Shown piece by piece: positions 10,856 through 48,166 of a stretch of DNA of 64,000 nt. A model generated the notes under the pieces. It worked only from the letters and a program-made list of their open reading frames with translations. It did not search any database and was not told the DNA's origin. The position numbers and the translations under genes are program-made. How positions within the stretch are numbered: position 1 is the first letter of the stretch; every line of letters begins with the position of its first letter. Location: IMG/VR virus record IMGVR_UViG_3300029581_000002; one strand, given 5' to 3'. The DNA is from a virus (Duplodnaviria > Heunggongvirae > Uroviricota > Caudoviricetes).

Positions 10856-11497
10856 TTACTTGCGACCTAGACCATTATAGAAATCAAGTATTGCATTCTC
10901 TTTACGAAGCCAAGTAGCCTGTTCTTTAGCCATATCAAGAATAGTACGACTAATAGATTCTTCTTCTACTTGCTCTTTAACTAACATACCTTCATCCTCA
11001 TCCTCTCCATTCAACCATTGGAATGTAGCCCAATCACTCTCTTTTTGAGCTTGGTCTACAATCTTATTAATACCACGAGTAGTCTCAATCTCCCTATCTA
11101 CTGTGGCAGCAAAGGGCATGACTCTATCAGTGATTTCAACATTAATGGCTGGAACAGGCGGATATTGGAACAGAGCATCGTTAGTGGTTAGATATTCAAA
11201 TATCCAAGAATGATGCAAATATTCTTCCTTAGCACGACCTCTCCAGTAAATACCTAGCTTTGGCAAACCCTCTACTTCAAAGTAATTGGCAAAGGTCATA
11301 TACAGAGCATGGTTGGCAAGTTCGGCTGACATCTGTTTTACCAACATCTCAACCATTACAGTTGATAGTGGGCAAACACGTCTAGACTTATCAATCACCT
11401 GCTCTGTATACTTCATAGTAGGTTCAGCGCCTACGGTTTGAACTCCTTCGCTTGTCTTCTCCTGTATTGGATTTCCGTCTTTGTCTAGCATTCTCAC
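10856..11497 (-). CDS. ferritin-like (four-helix-bundle di-iron) protein
   Basis: AELANHALYMTFANYFE parallels ferritin helix A (ELYASYVYLSMSYYF). RAKEEYLHH parallels the EEREH of helix B. The true start is probably the internal Met (MKYTEQ...) near 11416, which would avoid the overlap with the next gene. Confidence 0.45.
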   Translation of the reverse strand: MRMLDKDGNPIQEKTSEGVQTVGAEPTMKYTEQVIDKSRRVCPLSTVMVEMLVKQMSAELANHALYMTFANYFEVEGLPKLGIYWRGRAKEEYLHHSWIFEYLTTNDALFQYPPVPAINVEITDRVMPFAATVDREIETTRGINKIVDQAQKESDWATFQWLNGEDEDEGMLVKEQVEEESISRTILDMAKEQATWLRKENAILDFYNGLGRK

Positions 11498-16689: not shown

Positions 16690-17628
16690 TTATAGCATTA
16701 AATTGTTAATACGTTTATATTCTTCAAACACTTTGTCCTCTGATTCTTCTCCCCACATACTGTGAATGAGAATACCATAAGCACAAGGCTGGTACACAAT
16801 AGGGTCTACTGCCTTCTTAGTGATTGTAACCTCTGGATTGTTTAATTGACTAGGAGGGCAAGCTACAAATAGCTCATTTCTACCTATCTTAACAGCATCA
16901 AAGGAAACTATGTTAGGGTAGCTAAAAGCCTTTACATCAGCAGGAAGGCCGGGATTCTTGTTAATTATACTAGACAGCCTGAGTGTGCCTTCTGTATCAG
17001 GGCCAATAACTATGTGATTGTGTGATTCTATGTATTTCTTCAGATTGTTCAACATAGTTTCACTGTCACTGTATCCGTAGTTAATACCTGTAACATAATA
17101 ATACGCCCCATTAGCATACTCCAACCCTAAATCAGAGAACATTGGTCCTTCACCATTAAGTTTACGCTTAACTTCTAAGATTTCTCTAATATTACGGTCA
17201 GGAATCACTCCAGTGTACTGTTTTAGTAGACCTTTGACAAGTTTATACTTCTTACAAACATCATCAAATTGTTTAGAACCAACTAGAAGAGTACTCTCTC
17301 CGAATACCTCTCTTGCACGCTTTACGAAACTAAACAAGTTCTTAGCGCGCATGGCATCCAGAGCTATCTGATTATATTCCGATATTTTAGCTTGCAATAA
17401 CCTAGCATTTTTTGAGCTGCCCAGTCCAGCATCAACCAACGTGTTGTATTCTCTTACTAATGTATCTCTATTAGGAATATCAACTGATGTCTTGGAAACA
17501 GAACGTAGATATTCCTCCATACATAAAGCAAGAGCCATAGCTATGTTGGACTGAATAGTCGTCACCGGCACGTCAACCACTTCTGGAGTTATAACTTCAG
17601 AATCATTGCGTTTTAGAAATCTAAACAT
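16690..17628 (-). CDS. paralog-family protein A (C-terminal ..GILIHSMWGEESEDKVFEEYK motif)
   Basis: Shares N-terminal (AL.L..EY), mid (G.IP..N..EI, LF.A.P) and C-terminal motifs with 19645..20511 and 25252..26103. Confidence 0.5.
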   Translation of the reverse strand: MFRFLKRNDSEVITPEVVDVPVTTIQSNIAMALALCMEEYLRSVSKTSVDIPNRDTLVREYNTLVDAGLGSSKNARLLQAKISEYNQIALDAMRAKNLFSFVKRAREVFGESTLLVGSKQFDDVCKKYKLVKGLLKQYTGVIPDRNIREILEVKRKLNGEGPMFSDLGLEYANGAYYYVTGINYGYSDSETMLNNLKKYIESHNHIVIGPDTEGTLRLSSIINKNPGLPADVKAFSYPNIVSFDAVKIGRNELFVACPPSQLNNPEVTITKKAVDPIVYQPCAYGILIHSMWGEESEDKVFEEYKRINNLML

Positions 17629-19640
17629 CAGAAATTGACTTTTAAAGTTCTACTAAATGTTCCGTCCACTTTAACAATAACGGAATTACGCATAGTAGAT
17701 GAGAACCCTAATCCACTCAATTGATGTTCTTGGTAAGGAGTCTTCATCTTATCAGCTAGAACCTCAAATACCTTACGGTGAGGAGTTAGCTCACTGTTAA
17801 GATATTCGTTAAAGAATCCACGAACAGGCTCCGGATTCTTGCAATCATCCAACATAAAGAAGTAATGTTTATTGCCAATACCCTGCTCATCCCAATAATT
17901 GGGGGACAGCATCATCACGTTCACCTTATGGAACTTGTTAGTATCAATATTCCATAGGCTTACTGACGAATGGCTAGTACTGGGTATTAGCTCTCTTATT
18001 TGGATACCTTTAGATTTACTGTAAGTAATCTCGGCAACCATGACATTCTCTTTATGTTTAACGGGTTTGTCATAGACAAATTGTCGGACTTCTCCATTGT
18101 GTTCTATTTCCAATGTAAATCCTGTATCAACAGATTCTCTACAATGAAAGTTATTAACATACACAACATACTTACCTTCAAGCATCTTGCGTTCGTTAAC
18201 CCATATAATGTTCTCAACGGGTTTGCGAGTTTTGCCATATCCGGCATTTTCATCCACGTCTAGCTTACCACCACTTCTGCCGATTCTGTTGGAGTAATAA
18301 ATTTCAAGATTATTAGGTTCAACGACATGCAAATCCAAGTCATCATAGTTAGACCACGCTAATGAACATCTTAAGAATCCTTCAGTCTGACCACCAGCAG
18401 CTCTTACTTTCTCTTTAATAGAATCAGCTACTCCTCCATTATATGTCCAAGCAAAGTTGTTTGGCCATTTAAATAGATTCTTAGCATCCTTATTAACAGG
18501 AGCTGTAAGAGTTACTAAGTTATTAGACAGCCTACTCTCCATTAACACTTCTATGTTAGTGGCAGTGGGTACCACATTAGCAATGAAATCATCAATGCTA
18601 ATTTCAGTTAACTTGTCAAACTTCTTAGGATTAACTTTAGTGTCTGCGGCCAGTTCCTCGAATATGTTTCCGGCCATTACCTTCTTGGCATCACGGTTAG
18701 CGAATATAACATTGTTGACTGTTATATCCTCTAAAGCAGCATGTCTACGAGGTAGAGAATCCATAAGACCTAGTTCCTGCACTTTCTTCTGTGCTTCCTC
18801 AATCATTCTTTTAGTAACAATTGACTTAGGTCTTTGATAGTTCTCTGGAGCCATGATACGTTCGTATGCAGTCACACAATCGTCCAATTCAAGTCCTGAT
18901 GATATATTTACCAACAATGTACCAATTGCCGTATTACGAATGCGTGCACATCCTACACGATTGAAGTTTGCCCAACACCAGTTGTCTTTCTCTTCATCAG
19001 GTAATGAATCATAGTATCTTTTATGACCCAGGAATACACTTAAGTCATTTTTAAACTGTTCTCCTCTATATAAAGCATTCTGACCTATTAAGTCCAGAAC
19101 TGTTTCTATAGAATCGATAGTTAATTCCTCCAGTGCACGTTTGAACACTTCCTTAGTTGTGCGTAAAGTCCCCATTACAGCAGATACGGATTCAGTTCCT
19201 GTATACACCAATTGATTTGGCATATGATAGTAAAGATGATTCCAGGTAATTACTTTAGGACCTTGCAAACTGTCAATATAGGCATTGTTTCTATCAATTC
19301 CTAGTTCATAATCACGAGTGATAAAAACATCTACAACTGGTTTTGATTTCACTAATGCATCGAGATTTCTAGCTACAGTAGCATAAGGTTCATCCAACTG
19401 TAGGTTCTCCCACATGGTTACTACTTTATTGTCTTTAATGGCGACAACTCTACCATAATGTCTGATATAATGTTTACAATTGTTGCAATTATGAGACTGT
19501 CTCTCTTCCTCCGGAAAGGAATTAAGGTAACAATCCCATAATGCGTCCTTGTCTACATTAATCAGAAAGAGCATGTCTGCACCAGCAGCTAGTTGATTAA
19601 ACTGCGCATGGACTGCTCTTTTAAACTTGACAAATTCCAT
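17628..19640 (-). CDS. large hypothetical protein (670 aa) with N-terminal Cys/His cluster
   Basis: Long uninterrupted ORF carrying HNCNNCKHYIRHYGR. No recognisable catalytic motifs. Confidence 0.5.
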   Translation of the reverse strand: MEFVKFKRAVHAQFNQLAAGADMLFLINVDKDALWDCYLNSFPEEERQSHNCNNCKHYIRHYGRVVAIKDNKVVTMWENLQLDEPYATVARNLDALVKSKPVVDVFITRDYELGIDRNNAYIDSLQGPKVITWNHLYYHMPNQLVYTGTESVSAVMGTLRTTKEVFKRALEELTIDSIETVLDLIGQNALYRGEQFKNDLSVFLGHKRYYDSLPDEEKDNWCWANFNRVGCARIRNTAIGTLLVNISSGLELDDCVTAYERIMAPENYQRPKSIVTKRMIEEAQKKVQELGLMDSLPRRHAALEDITVNNVIFANRDAKKVMAGNIFEELAADTKVNPKKFDKLTEISIDDFIANVVPTATNIEVLMESRLSNNLVTLTAPVNKDAKNLFKWPNNFAWTYNGGVADSIKEKVRAAGGQTEGFLRCSLAWSNYDDLDLHVVEPNNLEIYYSNRIGRSGGKLDVDENAGYGKTRKPVENIIWVNERKMLEGKYVVYVNNFHCRESVDTGFTLEIEHNGEVRQFVYDKPVKHKENVMVAEITYSKSKGIQIRELIPSTSHSSVSLWNIDTNKFHKVNVMMLSPNYWDEQGIGNKHYFFMLDDCKNPEPVRGFFNEYLNSELTPHRKVFEVLADKMKTPYQEHQLSGLGFSSTMRNSVIVKVDGTFSRTLKVNF

Positions 19641-21779: not shown

Positions 21780-21862
21780 AGCGGCTGTCGGGAATCGAAC
21801 CCAATCTATCACTTGTGCGCATACTAAAATTAGTGATGTGCCCTCCTTTACACTACAACCGC
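21780..21862 (-). ncRNA. tRNA-like element with non-canonical 18-nt anticodon-region loop
   Basis: Perfect T arm TTGGG TTCGATT CCCGA, acceptor GCGGTTG/CAGCCGC and D arm. The stem TCACT/AGTGA encloses 18 nt instead of 7. Confidence 0.3.
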
Positions 21863-27067: not shown

Positions 27068-28525
27068 TTATTTGTTGTCTTTCTTCTCCGTAGAATAGTC
27101 CTTACGGTCGAGTTCCCACTGATACTCACACATCTGAGTGATTGCTTCAAGCTTCTCTGTACCCAGAACGAGTTTGAGAGCATTTACCAATCTTTCAGCC
27201 GGAGTTTCCACAACAGCTTTCTTGGATGCAAGTCCAAGTTGACGTTGATAAGATTCAACGCTAGCTTTGATATGGAACGATGTTACATGGGTTTCTTCCG
27301 TAAAGATAAGTTTGGATTTGGTTGATTCAACGATTTCAGCCATAAATGCCGGAGCAATTTCAGCTTCTTGAATGTAGTTACATACTTCACTCAAATCATC
27401 GTCGATTGTATATCCTTCTTCAGCGGTGAAGGTAGAACGGATGAATTTCTCCGCAGTTTCAGCGTCCAGACAGTCCATGGTAATCACAGAGCCGATTCTC
27501 TTACCTCTTAAGAAGGTAGGTTCAATCAATTCAATGTGATTAGTAGTGAACAAGGTGATTACGTTCATGTCTTTGGTATCACCACCGTCCAGAGTATTCA
27601 GGATGTCTTGCATAGCAGCATCTCTGTTACCTCTAGTTACTTGGTCAATATCTTCAACAAATACGACAACACCATGACCCGAACGGTCAACAACTTTACA
27701 CATGCGCAGAGTTTCTGCAAGAAGAGAAGGATTCTTCAAATACACGAATGACCAGCCGTTTGTTACAGCATCTTTAGCCAGCTTAAATGCCAGCAAGGTC
27801 TTACCTGTACCATATTTACCTTCCAGCAAACAACCATACTTCAATGGAATACCTTTAGCCAGACATTTCTCTGGATACAAGATTCTTGAACGTAGTGGTT
27901 GCAATTCAAATTCAGTCTTCTTAGAAAGAACCATGAATTGTTTCTCAATGCCGGCAAGTGTCATGATAGTAGGTTCAGACAGATTGCTGATTTCCAAAGC
28001 CTGGTTTTTGTAGATAGATTCTGATGCCAATAGCTCTTTAGTTCTGTCAACAATGTCATCAATTAATGACTGGTATTTGAACTGGCATTGTCCCTTAATA
28101 AGGAGCAAATGACGGTCATTGTCATAGTTGATGTTAATTTCAGAATCTTCTCCCAATTCTTCAAGGCTAATTTTACCAAACGGAACTTTGGTACGAGAAC
28201 CGTCTGCCAGAACAACGTCTACGGTATCAATGTTGCTGTTTCCAGAAGGACTGTTATCCTCCTTACTAACGGCAGAACCGAAGATTTCATTGATTGCTCT
28301 GTTCAACTGATATACACCGTCTGGTTTCCAACAAAGCAGCGAGTATTTGAAACTTGCCATTTTCTTGGACTGTTTGATTTCACCTTCGATGAATCCCAGA
28401 GCATCAGCATACTTCACATTGCTTTGGAGCACTTCAATCATTCTCTGTTTCTGAGTTTCCTCGTACTTGTTAACTCTCTGCTTAATAGCAGCTGTAGTTC
28501 CTTGCGGAATAATGTTCTTTGCCAT
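27068..28525 (-). CDS. AAA family ATPase
   Basis: Walker A GKYGTGKT, Walker B VVFVEDID and an SRH-like NHIELIEPTFLRGKRIG. A 230-aa N-terminal domain precedes the ATPase domain. Confidence 0.6.
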   Translation of the reverse strand: MAKNIIPQGTTAAIKQRVNKYEETQKQRMIEVLQSNVKYADALGFIEGEIKQSKKMASFKYSLLCWKPDGVYQLNRAINEIFGSAVSKEDNSPSGNSNIDTVDVVLADGSRTKVPFGKISLEELGEDSEININYDNDRHLLLIKGQCQFKYQSLIDDIVDRTKELLASESIYKNQALEISNLSEPTIMTLAGIEKQFMVLSKKTEFELQPLRSRILYPEKCLAKGIPLKYGCLLEGKYGTGKTLLAFKLAKDAVTNGWSFVYLKNPSLLAETLRMCKVVDRSGHGVVVFVEDIDQVTRGNRDAAMQDILNTLDGGDTKDMNVITLFTTNHIELIEPTFLRGKRIGSVITMDCLDAETAEKFIRSTFTAEEGYTIDDDLSEVCNYIQEAEIAPAFMAEIVESTKSKLIFTEETHVTSFHIKASVESYQRQLGLASKKAVVETPAERLVNALKLVLGTEKLEAITQMCEYQWELDRKDYSTEKKDNK

Positions 28526-29078: not shown

Positions 29079-30146
29079 CTAAACTAACTTATCGAATATC
29101 ATGGGCTGTATCGACATCCATAAATTTGCTAGCATTTCTCGCTCTGCGTCAGATGCTTCATCCCAATGTGATACGTACAATTTCTCCGTTCGTTCATTCC
29201 TATAAGGAACCTTAAATGAACGGTTAATGCGTACACTGTGTGCGAATAGGTCTTTGTCGAAATCAATAGCCCTAAGCGTCTTCTGGAAATCGTTGAACTT
29301 ATTATTAGGGTCATCGACATCCCTAACAGACATTCCAGAAGGAAACGGGCCGTTACCATGCCTTGTTATATAAGGACGAGTTACATAACAAGTTTGGATT
29401 TCTTTACGTATACCTGCTTTCCGCAACAGCTCGTAAGCGTTTTGTGAAGTTGTATTAGACGGAGTACAATAAGGCATTATGCCGAATCTTTGGTCAAGCA
29501 ATATTCCCTGTGAACCTTCAAACACTAGGTTATCATAATTCAACAAGCAATCTTCATTAACCGTACCTGTATGTAAGAAATAAGCATGTGCTAACCTACA
29601 CCAGTTGTCTAGGTCTATCGAAGGATATTTACTAGACATGTTGTAATAGTTATCCACTATGGCATTTAGTTTCTCACGCAGTATGTAAGGATTCATACAA
29701 TCTACAACTGTTAAGCTGTATCCTGCCTTAACCCGGTCCAAACAAGCTTTAAACCCTGTACCTACAGTACCATGTCGTAAGTTCTCTTCGTTATTAACTT
29801 GGGAATAGACATCGAAGGGAATTACAACTTGGCAGTGAGGGTGATACTGAACAATGGGATGAACTCCCATTTTAGCTAAGTCTGCACCCTCCAACATAGA
29901 GGTAATTGGGTCTACAGTACAGTATTCGGACCAGTACGTCGGCACTCCAAGTAAGGTTCCGCTGCCAAAGTTACTAAAGGTGTGCATCATGTCTCCATGC
30001 TTTACAGTATGTCCTACTTGATGTCCACCACTAAACCTGACTACTAACACAGACTCTCGCTTACCTATGTACTTGTTACATAAGTTGTGAACTGTCTGTC
30101 CCTTACCTTCGTCTCCAAAGAATGTTCCTAATACAATACTAATCAT
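29079..30146 (-). CDS. adenylosuccinate synthetase family protein (PurA/PurZ-like, short form)
   Basis: VLGTFFGDEGKGQ (PurA P-loop GDEGKGK), FSGGHQVGHT (YQGGHNAGHT) and FEGSQGILLD...MPYCTPSNTT (FEGAQGTLLD...YPYVTSSNTT). At 355 aa it is about 75 aa shorter than cellular PurA, as phage PurZ enzymes are. Confidence 0.65.
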   Translation of the reverse strand: MISIVLGTFFGDEGKGQTVHNLCNKYIGKRESVLVVRFSGGHQVGHTVKHGDMMHTFSNFGSGTLLGVPTYWSEYCTVDPITSMLEGADLAKMGVHPIVQYHPHCQVVIPFDVYSQVNNEENLRHGTVGTGFKACLDRVKAGYSLTVVDCMNPYILREKLNAIVDNYYNMSSKYPSIDLDNWCRLAHAYFLHTGTVNEDCLLNYDNLVFEGSQGILLDQRFGIMPYCTPSNTTSQNAYELLRKAGIRKEIQTCYVTRPYITRHGNGPFPSGMSVRDVDDPNNKFNDFQKTLRAIDFDKDLFAHSVRINRSFKVPYRNERTEKLYVSHWDEASDAEREMLANLWMSIQPMIFDKLV

Positions 30147-33723: not shown

Positions 33724-33775
33724 AATTCTAATAATTAGGTTAATAATGATTTTCGCAAACTCTTATTAGCCAGCG

Positions 33776-33863
33776 CGGAGAGTGCTGGATTCGAACCAGC
33801 GGAACCCTTTTGAGGTTCGGTCCCTTAGCAGGGGACTGGTTTAAGCCACTCACCCAACTCTCC
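33776..33863 (-). tRNA. tRNA-Ser(GCT)
   Basis: Type II: acceptor GGAGAGT, anticodon stem GTCCC/GGGAC with loop CTGCTAA, long variable arm, T arm GCTGG TTCGAAT CCAGC. Confidence 0.7.
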
Positions 33864-33950: not shown

Positions 33951-35912
33951 TTACTTTACAGGAGGAAAATTATCACCTTTAGCTGGTGATTCTTCTGGCT
34001 TCTTGCCAGTGATTATTTGCTTAAGCGAATCTGCAATGGGCAAATTGCGAGCAATTTCCAAGCTTGGAGCAAGATTCTTAGCCATATTAGCCATGAACTG
34101 CCCAGCAGTATTGGAATCACCATACACAGTAACATTACCAAGCTGGATATGTTCAAACACCTTAGCGTTGGCTTCAGCAACTTCTTTCCACCTGTCGGTC
34201 ATTGCATATTGAACGATTGCTTCAGGATGCATACCTGATTTAATCATATGTTCAACTGCAAGAGCCGGAGCCATTTCCATTGCCTGTTTCTGTTCAGCTT
34301 CTGCCATTAAAGATGCTTTCTTACCTTCAGCTTCAGCAAGAAGTTTCTTCTTGGTACCTTCAGCTTCTGCTTCCAGTTGCATCTTAGTAGCATTTGCTTT
34401 AGCTTCTGCTGCTTTCAAGATTTTAGCTGCTTCCGCTTCTGCTTCAAGAATGGCTACACTCTTAACAGCTTCTGCTTCAATTTTAGCTTTCTCTTTGGCT
34501 TTCTCGGCAGGTATAATTACTTCAGCTTTAAGCTTAGCTTCTTCAGCTTTAGCTTTAGCTTCGTTAACTTCCACCTGACGTTCTTGCTCTGTTTTAGCAA
34601 CTGCCATTTGAGCTTCAACTTTAGAAGTACCAGCTACTCTTTCTGCTTCAGCTTTAGCTTTCTCTGCTTCTCCCTTAGCTTTGGAAACTTCAATAGTAGC
34701 TTTCTGTTCAGCTACTCCTGCTGCTTTCTCTGCTTCAGCTGCCTTTTGACGGGCTTCTGATTCATACTGTGCAGTTTTAGCTTCCTTTTCCTGCTGTGCT
34801 TTAACAGTTTCAGCTTCTTGGTTTTGTGCTGCTACTGCCATACGAACTTCCTTCTCTGCTTCTGCTTCTGCCTTAGCGGCTTCAGCTTTGGCAGTAAATT
34901 CTGCTTCTTTAGCAGTTGCATAAGCTTGCTGCTCTGCAATCTTAGCAGCTCTTAATGCTTCTTGCTCGGCAACTTTGGATGCTTCTTCAGTTTGGGCTGT
35001 AGCCACACCAATTTCACGTTCCTTTCTTTGCTCTGCAACAGCAATTTGCTGCTCCTTATGCTGCTCGGCCAATTGAGTTTCTTTCTCTTTAGTGGTCTTA
35101 GCAATAGCAACTTCTTTCTCCCTGTTAGTTTCAGCCACTATAGTTTCTTGCTCCTTAGTAGCTGCTGCAATTGCAATCTCCTTCTCTCTCGTAGTTTGAG
35201 CTATCTGGATTGCTCCTTTCTTCTCTTCTTCTGCGATATCAGCTTGTGATTGCGCTCTTGCTTTAGTCTCTTCTTTCTTACCAAGATTATCAATATATTG
35301 AGCAGCATCTTGAATGTCACTGATATTGATATTCATCAGATAAAGACCAAGTTTGTTCAATTCTGTATTGATATTGTCTCTAGCTTGAGCTAGGAACTTG
35401 TCTCTGTCAGAGTTAAGCTCTTCAATAGTCATCGAAGCAATAACAAGCCTCATCTGACCATAAACAATATCTGAAATCAAACTTTCTTTAACGTCATCAT
35501 CAGCACCTAGTAAGCGATTAGCAGCATTCTGCATAATCAGCGGTTCTTGGCTAATAGCAACAGTTACAGTGGTAGGGATAGTTACACGAATATTTTGAGC
35601 TGACAAAGCATTCTTCAATACAAGATTCAATTGAATCGGCTGCATTGACATTACTTCATAACCCTGTATAATCGGCCATACAAAAGCTGCACCACCATGA
35701 TAAACTTTGGCAGTTTTAATTTCAACTTCTCTGTCAACCAGATTACCTTTAGCGTCGCGTTCGCTAACTTTCTCTTTGTGAGAGCCTGTTTTACCATAAA
35801 CTACCAACAATTCGTCAGATTTACATTTACGGTAGCGGGATAGAATCCCAATGATAGTGATGATTGCAACTAGTACAACTACACCAACGATAATTAATGA
35901 TGTCATTTCCAT
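33951..35912 (-). CDS. flotillin/SPFH (band-7) family membrane protein
   Basis: N-terminal TM helix, an SPFH-like domain, then about 300 aa of A/E/K-rich coiled coil (EAEAEK repeats) as in YqiK/FloT. Confidence 0.6.
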   Translation of the reverse strand: MEMTSLIIVGVVVLVAIITIIGILSRYRKCKSDELLVVYGKTGSHKEKVSERDAKGNLVDREVEIKTAKVYHGGAAFVWPIIQGYEVMSMQPIQLNLVLKNALSAQNIRVTIPTTVTVAISQEPLIMQNAANRLLGADDDVKESLISDIVYGQMRLVIASMTIEELNSDRDKFLAQARDNINTELNKLGLYLMNINISDIQDAAQYIDNLGKKEETKARAQSQADIAEEEKKGAIQIAQTTREKEIAIAAATKEQETIVAETNREKEVAIAKTTKEKETQLAEQHKEQQIAVAEQRKEREIGVATAQTEEASKVAEQEALRAAKIAEQQAYATAKEAEFTAKAEAAKAEAEAEKEVRMAVAAQNQEAETVKAQQEKEAKTAQYESEARQKAAEAEKAAGVAEQKATIEVSKAKGEAEKAKAEAERVAGTSKVEAQMAVAKTEQERQVEVNEAKAKAEEAKLKAEVIIPAEKAKEKAKIEAEAVKSVAILEAEAEAAKILKAAEAKANATKMQLEAEAEGTKKKLLAEAEGKKASLMAEAEQKQAMEMAPALAVEHMIKSGMHPEAIVQYAMTDRWKEVAEANAKVFEHIQLGNVTVYGDSNTAGQFMANMAKNLAPSLEIARNLPIADSLKQIITGKKPEESPAKGDNFPPVK

Positions 35913-46779: not shown

Positions 46780-47129
46780 TTTAATAGTTCCAATTTAGCT
46801 ACGTCCTTATCATACCATATCCCAATCCAGAAGTTGTCTACAAAGTTCCTATGATTCATGATGGTATAATTAAGCCTTAAGACATCACTAGATATAAGAT
46901 AGTAATTCTTCCTATCAGTAGCCTCCAATGTTTCTTTGAGCACTGCGTGCTTGCCAATAATTTGAATATTCCTTGTAATAGCGAATGGTAATGAAATCGC
47001 TGCCCCAACTGTTGCTATTGAGAATACAATCTCAACTGCCACTGCAACTTCTCTTAGGTCTTTAGACCCTACTCGCGAAAGACATACACAAATAAGTAAA
47101 ACAATCACTGCAATAATAAATAATCCCAT
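46776..47129 (-). CDS. hypothetical membrane protein
   Basis: 117 aa with two N-terminal TM helices. Confidence 0.35.
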   Translation of the reverse strand: MGLFIIAVIVLLICVCLSRVGSKDLREVAVAVEIVFSIATVGAAISLPFAITRNIQIIGKHAVLKETLEATDRKNYYLISSDVLRLNYTIMNHRNFVDNFWIGIWYDKDVAKLELLK

Positions 47130-47157: not shown

Positions 47158-47676
47158 TGGACCTAGGCGGAGTCGAACCGCCGTCCAAACAACCCTCATT
47201 AATAAGATTACGTGTGTCTCTATTTTATTACATCAGCTGTTGAGTTCAGCATGTAGGTAGTTTTACTAAGAAGCCGAGTGTTAATTCACCAATTACGTCT
47301 CCCTCGTAGGGCTACGACTTAGTTGTTCACAAACTACCAAACTGGGCTTGACCGAACGGTCGCTCCACCACTCCATTTACGTTGGAGAACGTTTCTATTT
47401 GTAACCCATAGATAGGTAGTGGAGATTTCAGCTTTACTAACCTTTGGCTTTCAAGTTAAGTGGGCTGCCCTATATGCTTCTTCCCACACCTCTTCTGTTT
47501 CTAGGTCTCTCCAATTAACCCGACTTAGAGCTAAATTAATAGATAAGCCAGCAGCTTAGGCTGCCATTCTTACTTCAGTGTTTCCACTTAAATTGCTGTA
47601 TCATTATTAAAGAGTTGGTACGAACTCTACACGTCTTACTAACTTGTAATCGCCTGTCAAAACCAAATCTAGGCCC
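47158..47676 (-). ncRNA. tmRNA-like RNA (SsrA-like)
   Basis: Minus-strand 5' end GGGCCUAGAUUUGGUUUUGACAGG resembles the tmRNA 5' consensus GGGGCUGAUUCUGGAUUCGACGGG. The 3' end GGCGG TTCGACT CCGCC TAGGTCC A gives a T arm plus acceptor pairing with the 5' end. A short tag-like frame ..GGA AAC ACT GAA GTA AGA ATG GCA GCC TAA (GNTEVRMAA*) ends near nt 120. There is no ORF over 519 nt. Confidence 0.4.
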
Positions 47677-47812
47677 ATAGAACGGCATGATTATCCTCTC
47701 ATGCCAGGAGGTCTCTCAAACCTGAACAAAAAAGCTATCAGTATCTTCCTGTGCTACATTGAGTAGCGTACCCATTACAGACTTAATAGCCTAGGAGTTA
47801 TTTTTATTCCAT

Positions 47813-48166
47813 TTAAAATGGTAAGTTCCCTTCATGTTTCATCCAACTATAAACTACAATTTCATAATCTGGGAAATCGTTGGCAAGTTTAATACAACTG
47901 TCAAACGATAACTCTGTTATGCATATAAGAGGGTAATCATTGTCAAGCCATTCTCTAATTACATCCTTATCAGGAATATGCTCATCCAATGACCATTTAA
48001 GCTCACGTTCAAGTCTTTCACGTATCGTATTTAATTTAATATGGTCATGTGTTCCATATATAACATTTAATATGTAATACAATAAATGGCTATTGAACTT
48101 ATCAACATCGCTAATAAGAATATGCCTCTTGGCATTCCTTAAAGAATTAACTGCATTCTGATTCAT
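47813..48166 (-). CDS. hypothetical protein
   Basis: 117-aa ORF. Confidence 0.4.
   Translation of the reverse strand: MNQNAVNSLRNAKRHILISDVDKFNSHLLYYILNVIYGTHDHIKLNTIRERLERELKWSLDEHIPDKDVIREWLDNDYPLICITELSFDSCIKLANDFPDYEIVVYSWMKHEGNLPF

Follow-up and report, generated by a model that had tools for sequence, protein, structure and literature searches.

A probable and oversized one-piece tmRNA gene at the edge of the tRNA array of a large uncultivated human-gut phage

The DNA studied here is a 64,000-nt stretch, referred to below as the window, of the viral record IMGVR_UViG_3300029581_000002 (Caudoviricetes). Between the open reading frames (ORFs) at 46776-47129 and 47813-48166 lie 683 bp whose longest ORF, both strands considered, has 46 aa. 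A first-pass annotation, made from the sequence alone, had likewise reported no ORF over 60 aa here and had suggested a phage-encoded transfer-messenger RNA (tmRNA) on the minus strand. The interval stands at one end of a same-strand tRNA gene array (28 ARAGORN calls, 27 of them on the minus strand), and the window also carries phage replication genes for a primase, a DnaB-like helicase, another helicase and a Sak4-like annealing protein. Sequence comparison indicates that the ORF-free interval is very probably a functional one-piece tmRNA gene (ssrA) of a large uncultivated human-gut phage, located at the edge of its tRNA array.

The Rfam tmRNA model RF00023 matched the minus strand from 47676 to 47155 over its whole length (model positions 1-374 of 374). 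The score was 85.7 bits against a gathering score of 47, with an E-value of 8e-32 for the 64-kb window and 1.1e-33 for the sub-region alone. This full-length match above threshold, obtained with a method that the first-pass annotation had named as a check, bears out its interpretation, and the phage origin of the tmRNA is supported by the tRNA array, the replication genes and the relatives in IMG/VR. The ends had been placed exactly, 47676 being G1 and 47158 the discriminator A. Counted up to the discriminator, the RNA has 519 nt; the Rfam match, at 522 nt, extends to 47155 and takes in a CUA where CCA would stand. The annotated length of 519 nt, noted as longer than typical, thus stands against a model of 374 positions; the tmRNA is oversized by about 150 nt, phage tmRNAs as such being already known. 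In the following, RNA position n corresponds to window coordinate 47677 - n.

Relatives were collected with a 3'-end pattern search of IMG/VR, which gave 48 viral contigs, mostly of 90-270 kb and spanning 90-317 kb. A complete gene was present in 38 of these, yielding 29 unique sequences with Rfam scores of 47.9-85.9 bits. All except two are 515-574 nt long (27/29); the others are ordinary-length types of 370 nt (on a 317-kb contig) and 374 nt. The lineages are only about 68-74% identical to one another. The 20-mer GACCTAGAAACAGAAGAGGT, invariant in the long forms, occurred in at least 120 metagenome contigs. Among the matches listed, all descriptively named contigs were from human gut metagenomes and many were 175-202 kb in size, and these contigs provided 16 further unique long sequences of 515-566 nt. 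In 50,697 deposited phage records, the tmRNA matched just two unannotated human-faecal scaffolds, one of which (MT837398) showed 70.9% identity across 80% of the query. The nearest deposited phages were similarly sparse, the nucleotide relatives being just three unannotated faecal scaffolds plus tRNA-sized matches. A scan of bacterial genomes with the 3'-end pattern GGTTCGACTCCNNNTAGGTCCAC produced 120 matches, mostly in Patescibacteria, with no full-length tmRNA relative among them; searching these matches with the family profile (nhmmer) gave short alignments of the 3' end (T arm and acceptor) only, and we take the matches to be probable tRNA-Ala-like 3' ends.

The structure model contains 128 pairs in 27 helices, counted on an alignment of the 27 distinct long sequences. 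In the given structure 89% of the cells were paired, against 36-45% when the partners were slid by 1-3 columns. The number of cells changed on both sides was 150 (10-40 with slid partners), and the covariation score was 0.160 (0.020-0.050 with slid partners). None of 500 shuffles attained the observed covariation score or percentage paired. Compensatory conservation across the 27 long relatives, together with the E-value of the covariance-model match, excludes chance. The elements of the gene and its surroundings are as follows.

47158..47676, minus strand: tmRNA (ssrA) gene, RNA 1-519, G1 to discriminator A (RF00023 match, family alignment, pair counts)
47670..47676, minus strand: acceptor stem 5' strand GGGCCUA, RNA 1-7, partner 47159-47165 (pair counts)
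47657..47669, minus strand: D-loop-like segment GAUUUGGUUUUGAC, RNA 8-20 (consensus UGGaUUCGAC, high posterior)
47629..47656, minus strand: helix 2 5' strand, RNA 21-48, pairing with RNA 462-491 (pair counts and minimum-free-energy (MFE) fold)
47598..47628, minus strand: pseudoknot 1, RNA 49-79 (stem AGAGUU/AACUCU, loop GUA with UAC at 77-79)
47586..47590, minus strand: frame-setting upstream pentamer UAAGU, RNA 87-91 (U(-5)A(-4) in all 29 unique family sequences)
47556..47585, minus strand: tag reading frame GGA..GCC UAA, RNA 92-121, (A)GNTEVRMAA-stop
47551..47564, minus strand: helix 5 GCAGC-CUAA-GCUGC, RNA 113-126, stop codon in the loop (100% of cells paired)
47522..47549, minus strand: hairpin module M1, RNA 128-155, adjoining helix 5 (closed hairpin in all eight sequence versions, with differing interiors)
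47420..47521, minus strand: pseudoknot 2 with expanded loop, RNA 156-257 (stem pair counts)
47371..47417, minus strand: two small H-type pseudoknots, RNA 260-282 and 285-306 (helices 13, 14, 16, 17)
47343..47367, minus strand: stem UGG/CCA around the variable hairpin M7 GACC-GUUC-GGUC, RNA 310-334 (helices 18-20, 92-100% paired)
47256..47338, minus strand: branched domain M8 of 83 nt, RNA 339-421, closing helix GGUAGUUU/AAACUACC
47230..47254, minus strand: hairpin M9 ACAUGCUG..CAGC-UG-AUGU, RNA 423-447, conserved loop AACUCA (92% paired)
47186..47215, minus strand: helix 2 3' strand, RNA 462-491 (pair counts and MFE fold)
47166..47182, minus strand: T arm GGCGG-UUCGACU-CCGCC, RNA 495-511 (100% of cells paired)
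47158..47165, minus strand: acceptor stem 3' strand UAGGUCC, RNA 512-518, and discriminator A519 (Rfam match, pair counts)
47684..47719, minus strand: upstream leader region (hairpin and overlapping sigma-70-like site)

Apart from pseudoknot 1, which is weak, the sequence-level determinants of a one-piece tmRNA are all present and under selection, and the features by which such an RNA is recognized in silico were all found. The gene resembles bacterial one-piece tmRNAs (SsrA, RF00023), such as that of E. coli, in its tRNA-Ala-like domain with G3·U70, T arm, helix 2, putative pseudoknot 1 and U-A motif, and also in its tag of about ten residues ending in a hydrophobic residue and Ala-Ala, the stop codon in helix 5 and a downstream ring of pseudoknots. 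It differs from them in its length, in the GGA resume codon, in the unencoded CCA, and in being phage-encoded with no smpB found nearby.

The acceptor stem comprises seven base pairs (G1-C, G2-C, G3·U, C4-G, C5-G, U6-A and A7-U), the third of which is G·U in 27 of the 27 long relatives. G3·U70 is the determinant for alanyl-tRNA synthetase (AlaRS). The phage's own tRNA-Ala begins with GGGCCUG and finishes with GGUCCA. Both the acceptor stem and helix 5 are invariant across the long family. The resemblance of the minus-strand 5' end to tmRNAs, which had been noticed earlier, is confirmed by the alignment of GGGCCUAGAUUUGGUUUUGAC to the consensus GGGGcuGAuucUGGaUUCGAC with a posterior near 1. In this region the D-loop analogue UGGUUUUGAC (RNA 11-20) aligns to UGGaUUCGAC, and G13, G14 and U16 to A20 (UUUGA) show no variation in the family. 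The annotated pairing at the 3' end is also correct: GGACGGCGGUUCGACUCCGCCUAGGUCCA forms a T arm with a 5-bp stem and a 7-nt loop, and UAGGUCC pairs with GGGCCUA. Three of the five T-arm pairs are changed on both sides across the relatives, with every cell still paired.

An anticodon arm is absent, and helix 2 takes its place. It consists of 23 pairs in three sub-helices (21-29/483-491, 35-43/470-478 and 44-48/462-466), all of which are 100% paired in the 27 sequences; sub-helix 35-43/470-478 has three pairs with compensatory changes. A thermodynamic fold of the whole RNA independently recovered the acceptor stem, helix 2, the T arm, stem 1 of pseudoknot 1 and helix 5. A519 is directly followed by CUA, so the 3' CCA is not encoded. 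The same holds for the tRNA genes on the minus strand between 14763 and 48317, none of which (0/27) encodes CCA. The lack of an encoded CCA in both the tmRNA and the 27 tRNAs points to dependence on a CCA-adding enzyme; none was found among the ORFs scanned, which were part of those in the window.

The tag-like frame ending in MAA and a stop, noted in the first-pass annotation, reads GGA AAC ACU GAA GUA AGA AUG GCA GCC UAA at RNA 92-121. This translates to GNTEVRMAA-stop and has no start codon. The motif U(-5)A(-4), a GCN or GGN resume codon and an in-frame stop occur in all 29 unique sequences from IMG/VR contigs and in the 16 further ones from metagenomes. The conserved U(-5)A(-4) fits the published frame-setting rule, A86 being the main determinant of frame choice in E. 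coli (PMC2481249). U85 and A86 of E. coli SsrA, in the equivalent pentamer UAGUC, are in the same places as the U and A of UAAGU.

The tags found were GNTEVRMAA, AEIAPVRMAA, ATYSEVRMAA (with a UAA or UGA stop), AAYSEVRMAA, AEIDYNRMAA, ASRRRPVRLVA and GENVDSPAYAYAMAA. Seven of the eight versions end in MAA and one in LVA, and every one is Ala-terminated; the end is hydrophobic-Ala-Ala, or Val-Ala in the single case of ASRRRPVRLVA. A hydrophobic residue followed by a C-terminal Ala-Ala is an ordinary degradation signal, as in the E. coli tag ANDENYALAA. Variation is confined to the N-terminal part of the tag, and RMAA forms the last four residues in 27 of the 27 long forms. Helix 5 is retained with a UGA stop in L027 and L044, two members of the family.

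Pseudoknots, which the first-pass annotation had proposed to look for, are supported to different degrees. Pair counts support pseudoknot 2 and the two H-type pseudoknots, but the second stem of pseudoknot 1 has just 3 bp. Stem 1 of pseudoknot 1 is a 6-bp helix (49-54/61-66) and stem 2 pairs GUA (56-58) with UAC (77-79). In L011 and L035 the middle pair of stem 2 is changed from U-A to C-G (GCA/UGC).

Several observations weigh against a functional tmRNA. In the RF00023 alignment the posterior is low in the middle of the molecule and the overall accuracy is 0.64. The folding energy of the whole molecule gives a modest gain over shuffles (z = -1.77). With its 3-bp stem 2, pseudoknot 1 is evident just as a hairpin in 20 of the 27 relatives, including the commonest, L001-type. 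The resume codon in the window is GGA (Gly), whereas most long relatives have GCN, and the short relative L004 has GGC. Promoter-like sites in the region numbered 4 with 5.3 expected, which is not above chance. Searches by phmmer and tblastn with E. coli and B. subtilis SmpB detected no homologue at E <= 1, either in the window ORFs or in the 508 kb made up of the window and the family loci; reliance of the tmRNA on the host protein is an assumption, though a probable one. In IMG/VR the SmpB queries retrieved E. coli prophage ends only, as 100% matches, which confirmed that the E. coli query was exact.

The failure of ARAGORN to detect the gene belongs to the same group of observations. This program, also named as a check in the first-pass annotation, made 28 tRNA calls on the window and did not call the tmRNA. 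When run on the 29 unique family sequences, it found the 2 short types, with the tags GENVDSPAYAYAMAA and ASRRRPVRLVA, assigned a wrong tag to two 515-nt sequences, which stand for four copies, and missed the other 25, all of them long. Because the short relatives are found and the long ones missed, we regard the negative outcome as a limitation of the tool and not as counter-evidence.

Other known tmRNA forms do not describe the gene. The permuted-tmRNA model reached 23 bits where 47 are needed and matched the 3' part only, and the gene order is standard; this rules out the permuted two-piece form (RF04321 and related). Group I intron tmRNAs, interrupted in the T loop, are also much longer than the norm (PMC11915505). 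In the window RNA, however, the T loop UUCGACU is uninterrupted, the T arm being contiguous and canonical, no intron family matched at E <= 1, and the extra length is spread over the pseudoknot region with no intron signature, which rules out this form as well. A mini-tmRNA with a tRNA-like domain only, as in mycobacteriophage DS6A, is ruled out by the conserved tag frame.

The extra length was examined by comparison with the ordinary-length relatives. The 370-374-nt gut phage tmRNAs (L004 on the 317-kb contig, L021 and L030) have the same acceptor stem and T arm as the window RNA and share the GAAACAGAA motif after pseudoknot 2, with tags ending in MAA or LVA. They lack modules equivalent to window RNA 225-290, 315-338, 360-410 and 427-447, and they are detected by ARAGORN. 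Relative to these RNAs, the extra length of the long forms lies at several separate sites from helix 5 to the 3' strand of helix 2 and is not a single insertion. Modules were excised between conserved anchors and folded separately per lineage; in each lineage they close into a stem-loop, even though their sequences are unrelated. This was more informative than column-wise covariation scans of the whole alignment, which were noisy because the variable modules are replaced wholesale and not mutated.

In pseudoknot 2, stem 1 is GGGU/ACCU (156-159/171-174) and stem 2 is UGGAGA/UCUCCA (164-169/252-257). Stem 2 is 96% paired, and its closing pair 164/257 is seen as UA, GU, UG and AU. An alternative 9-bp helix (253-261/306-314), preferred in MFE folding, competes with this stem, and it loses two pairs in the L010 group. 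Pseudoknot 2 was kept in the model since position 257 covaries with 164; the 9-bp helix is a possible alternative conformer. The loop of pseudoknot 2 bears modules M3 (190-217) and M4 (228-238). M3 is 29, 32, 47, 52 or 76 nt long and differs in sequence between lineages, with a terminal helix closing every version, and compensatory changes are present in M4.

The two H-type pseudoknots that follow are formed by ACCU/GGGU and CUAU/AUAG (260-282) and by ACGU/ACGU and CUCCA/UGGAG (285-306), and pairing in their helices 13, 14, 16 and 17 is 81-100% complete and includes two-sided changes. The second of them is kept in the L016-type as CGUU/AGCG and CCUACUUU/AAAGUAGG; in place of the first, the L010 and L016 types carry different structured modules. 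M7 (316-327), located inside the stem 310-312/332-334, is a hairpin in all 12 sequence versions. The closing helix of M8 is 95% paired, one pair being seen as G-C, G·U and A-U, and it encloses a structured, lineage-specific interior of 64-85 nt. Inside M8, L001 and L027 show a pseudoknot in which a compensatory change has occurred (GCUGG/CCAGC against GCUAGAU/AUCUAGC). The inner stem of M9 varies among relatives between GCUG/CAGC and GCUAG/CUAGC.

The modules are also mosaic. When window 47216-47502 was compared with L010, L011, L014, L016 and L027, the L010 gene combined an L014-like 5' half with window-type 3' modules, and L011 was window-like except for an L001-type 76-nt M3. This suggests recombination within the gene between co-circulating phages. 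No other Rfam family was found within the expansion at E <= 1 and no second copy of the inserted parts was present in the window, for which reasons a mobile repeat, riboswitch or intron was rejected as the source of the extra length. The extra ~150 nt instead look like lineage-specific structured expansion modules of the pseudoknot ring. Where RF00023 usually has three ring pseudoknots, the window RNA is modeled with at least three of the H-type, several hairpins and an 83-nt branched domain. In E. coli tmRNA, the ring pseudoknots 2-4 are stated to be replaceable without loss of activity (PMC2481249).

A tmRNA-like RNA in a phage could serve other ends than tagging. A tmRNA-derived decoy would bind host SmpB or ribosomes and inhibit or divert host trans-translation with no tagging, as modeled on a proposal for the DS6A mini tmRNA-like RNA, which has the tRNA-like domain only. 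That phage molecule exists, and a similar construct inhibits E. coli tmRNA (PMC4131195; PMC11915505); the strongly altered pseudoknot ring and the absence of a detected phage SmpB near the gene could also be understood in this way. A decoy needs no tag, however, whereas the tag frame, U-A motif, stop codon and helix 5 are kept in 45 of 45 unique sequences, with amino acid changes limited to the N-terminal part of the tag. A decoy is thus very unlikely. It is barely credible that the gene is a decaying passenger, that is, a host-derived ssrA copy, acquired for example by integration at ssrA and imprecise excision, that drifts without function and carries its extra length as junk. Phages often integrate into ssrA and carry its fragments (PMC9004378), and the middle part is indeed a highly variable mosaic that aligns poorly to the model. 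Against this, the gene is full length and conserved, with compensatory changes in its helices, across lineages as divergent as given above. The inserts are structured in every lineage, and the tag is intact in every copy, which is not the behaviour of a pseudogene or an attachment-site remnant. Pfam and PHROG searches of the ORFs flanking the tmRNA gave no match and thus revealed no integrase beside it.

Two further explanations accept an active tmRNA and differ in what it does. The tag ...VRMAA might be non-proteolytic, avoiding or redirecting host degradation or being read by a phage factor, with the modules as protein-binding platforms. The constancy of RMAA in the long forms against a varying remainder of the tag, the expansions at fixed sites that are swapped between lineages, and the abundance of the family in gut metagenomes all agree with such a role. 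But hydrophobic-Ala-Ala is the ordinary degradation signal, nothing points to a partner protein, and the known replaceability of pseudoknots 2-4 means that the variation may be neutral, which leaves this explanation quite unlikely. The idea that the 515-574-nt RNAs are a distinct long one-piece class, peculiar to a widespread group of human-gut phages of ~185-190 kb, whose modules have a phage-specific role and did not arise by neutral drift, has a small chance of being right. If it were, the modules could help to resist host RNases or defence nucleases, recruit a phage or host factor, or tune rescue to a cell in which an amber suppressor causes read-through into mRNA 3' ends.

For the preferred reading, a functional tmRNA that tags proteins, the following route can be proposed. 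The RNA would be transcribed together with neighbouring tRNA genes or ORFs, cut at its 5' end by RNase P, trimmed at its 3' end and provided with CCA by a CCA-adding enzyme, a step suggested by the unencoded CCA. Host AlaRS would charge it with alanine through G3·U70, and host SmpB and EF-Tu would bind it and bring it to ribosomes that have stalled on mRNAs that are broken or lack a stop codon. Such a ribosome would switch to the tag frame at GGA, add (A)GNTEVRMAA, terminate at UAA and be recycled, and the hydrophobic-Ala-Ala end would target the product to ClpXP-type host proteases. A speculative benefit for the phage is that ribosomes would be kept free while host and phage mRNAs are cut during infection, including by host defences. 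Rescue might be especially useful if an amber suppressor drives read-through into 3' ends, and the tmRNA may complement the phage's own tRNA supply, including that suppressor.

The surroundings of the gene bear on its transcription. In many relatives a tRNA-Ile gene begins 7 nt past the tmRNA, and in L011 and L035 the tmRNA is separated by 12 nt from the stop codon of the preceding ORF, with no leader spacer. Such close neighbours make processing from a longer transcript likelier than a dedicated promoter. In the window, a leader hairpin GGCAUGA..UCAUGCC (47684-47705, minus strand) lies 7 nt before G1 and overlaps a sigma-70-like TTGAGA-18-GATAAT (47690-47719). A dedicated promoter at this site, ending 14 nt before G1, was rejected, as such sites are not enriched and the spacer is gone in L011 and L035. 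Hairpins of 6-7 bp occur 5-7 nt before the tmRNA in three unrelated versions (GGCAUGA/UCAUGCC, CCAGUUU/AAACUGG and CCCGUC/GACGGG); those of unrelated sequence at the same place belong to the L001-type and the L016/L020-type, and L011 and L035 have none. The leader hairpin may serve in processing or mark where an upstream transcript ends.

The sole plus-strand ARAGORN call in the tRNA array, tRNA-Arg(tcg) at 33760-33836, overlaps the minus-strand tRNA-Ser(gct) at 33775-33863 and is probably spurious. Rfam gives an extra tRNA at 21780-21862 (minus strand, 38.5 bits) that is absent from the ARAGORN list. A tRNA with anticodon CUA, an amber suppressor labelled Pyl by ARAGORN, lies within the array at 40783-40855 (minus strand), and L004 likewise has one. 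Stop-codon recoding was considered and rejected for the window: reading TAG, TGA or TAA as sense merges no window ORFs convincingly, and TAG ends 11 of the 66 minus-strand ORFs. The CUA-anticodon tRNA thus has no visible target in the window, and any recoded genes would be outside it.

Other features of the window, all on the minus strand, were noted in passing. A full-length RAGATH-34 RNA lies at 45172-45279 (120.9 bits, gathering score 60.7) and is also present in the related loci L005 and L007. It is ~270 nt upstream, in the RNA sense, of a 575-aa ORF (43174-44901) with a weak match to PHROG 850 'RNA-binding protein' (34 bits), and the two are a possible RNA-protein pair. The ORF at 29079-30146 encodes a short adenylosuccinate-synthetase homologue of 355 aa (PF00709, 120.7 bits; PHROG 1211) with the size and family of PurZ, a hint at possible synthesis of 2-aminoadenine (Z) DNA by the phage; the neighbouring ORF 30153-31085 matches PHROG 2971. 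Further products are a 653-aa SPFH/Band-7 protein (33951-35912), a 485-aa AAA ATPase with weak STAND-like matches (27068-28525) and a ferritin-like protein (10856-11497). A 670-aa PHROG 1735 protein (17628-19640) shows 46-47% identity to proteins of Bacillus, Serratia, Klebsiella and Salmonella phages, and its homologues are labelled DNA-directed RNA polymerase in some records.

Phage-borne tmRNAs are known and are rare in catalogues. Complete ssrA genes occur in Bxz1-like mycobacteriophages and Bacillus phage G (PMC4131195), and huge metagenomic phages have tmRNA, some of them also encoding SmpB (PMC7162821). Among isolate phage genomes, tmRNA was found in about 2% (402/18,146 by ARAGORN; PMC9004378). 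The window gene is like these in being a complete ssrA in a large genome with many tRNA genes (PMC4131195; PMC7162821; PMC9004378). It is unlike them in two respects: the known examples were found by ARAGORN or BLAST and the window family is largely invisible to ARAGORN, and some huge phages encode SmpB, which was not seen in the window or the 508 kb of window plus family loci. OM43 phage Melnitz and pelagimyophages have a permuted two-piece tmRNA with a glutamine riboswitch (PMC9004378). The likeness lies in a phage ssrA with an added RNA element, but the window tmRNA is not permuted and has no riboswitch or other Rfam family inside. A tmRNA database from 2025 includes RefSeq viruses only, with candidates obtained mainly via ARAGORN and BLAST (PMC11915505), and probably missed the window family.

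The finding leaves the known mechanism of trans-translation unchanged. It adds a tmRNA as a further translation component to a phage with 27-28 tRNA genes and an amber suppressor. Given the blind spot of ARAGORN for long forms, surveys of translation genes in gut phages probably under-count ssrA. The family moreover amounts to a natural experiment on the pseudoknot ring, the part of tmRNA that is least understood: against a constant background of tRNA-like domain, helix 2, tag and helix 5, the ring has received modules of 20-85 nt at fixed sites, where they vary in size and are exchanged.

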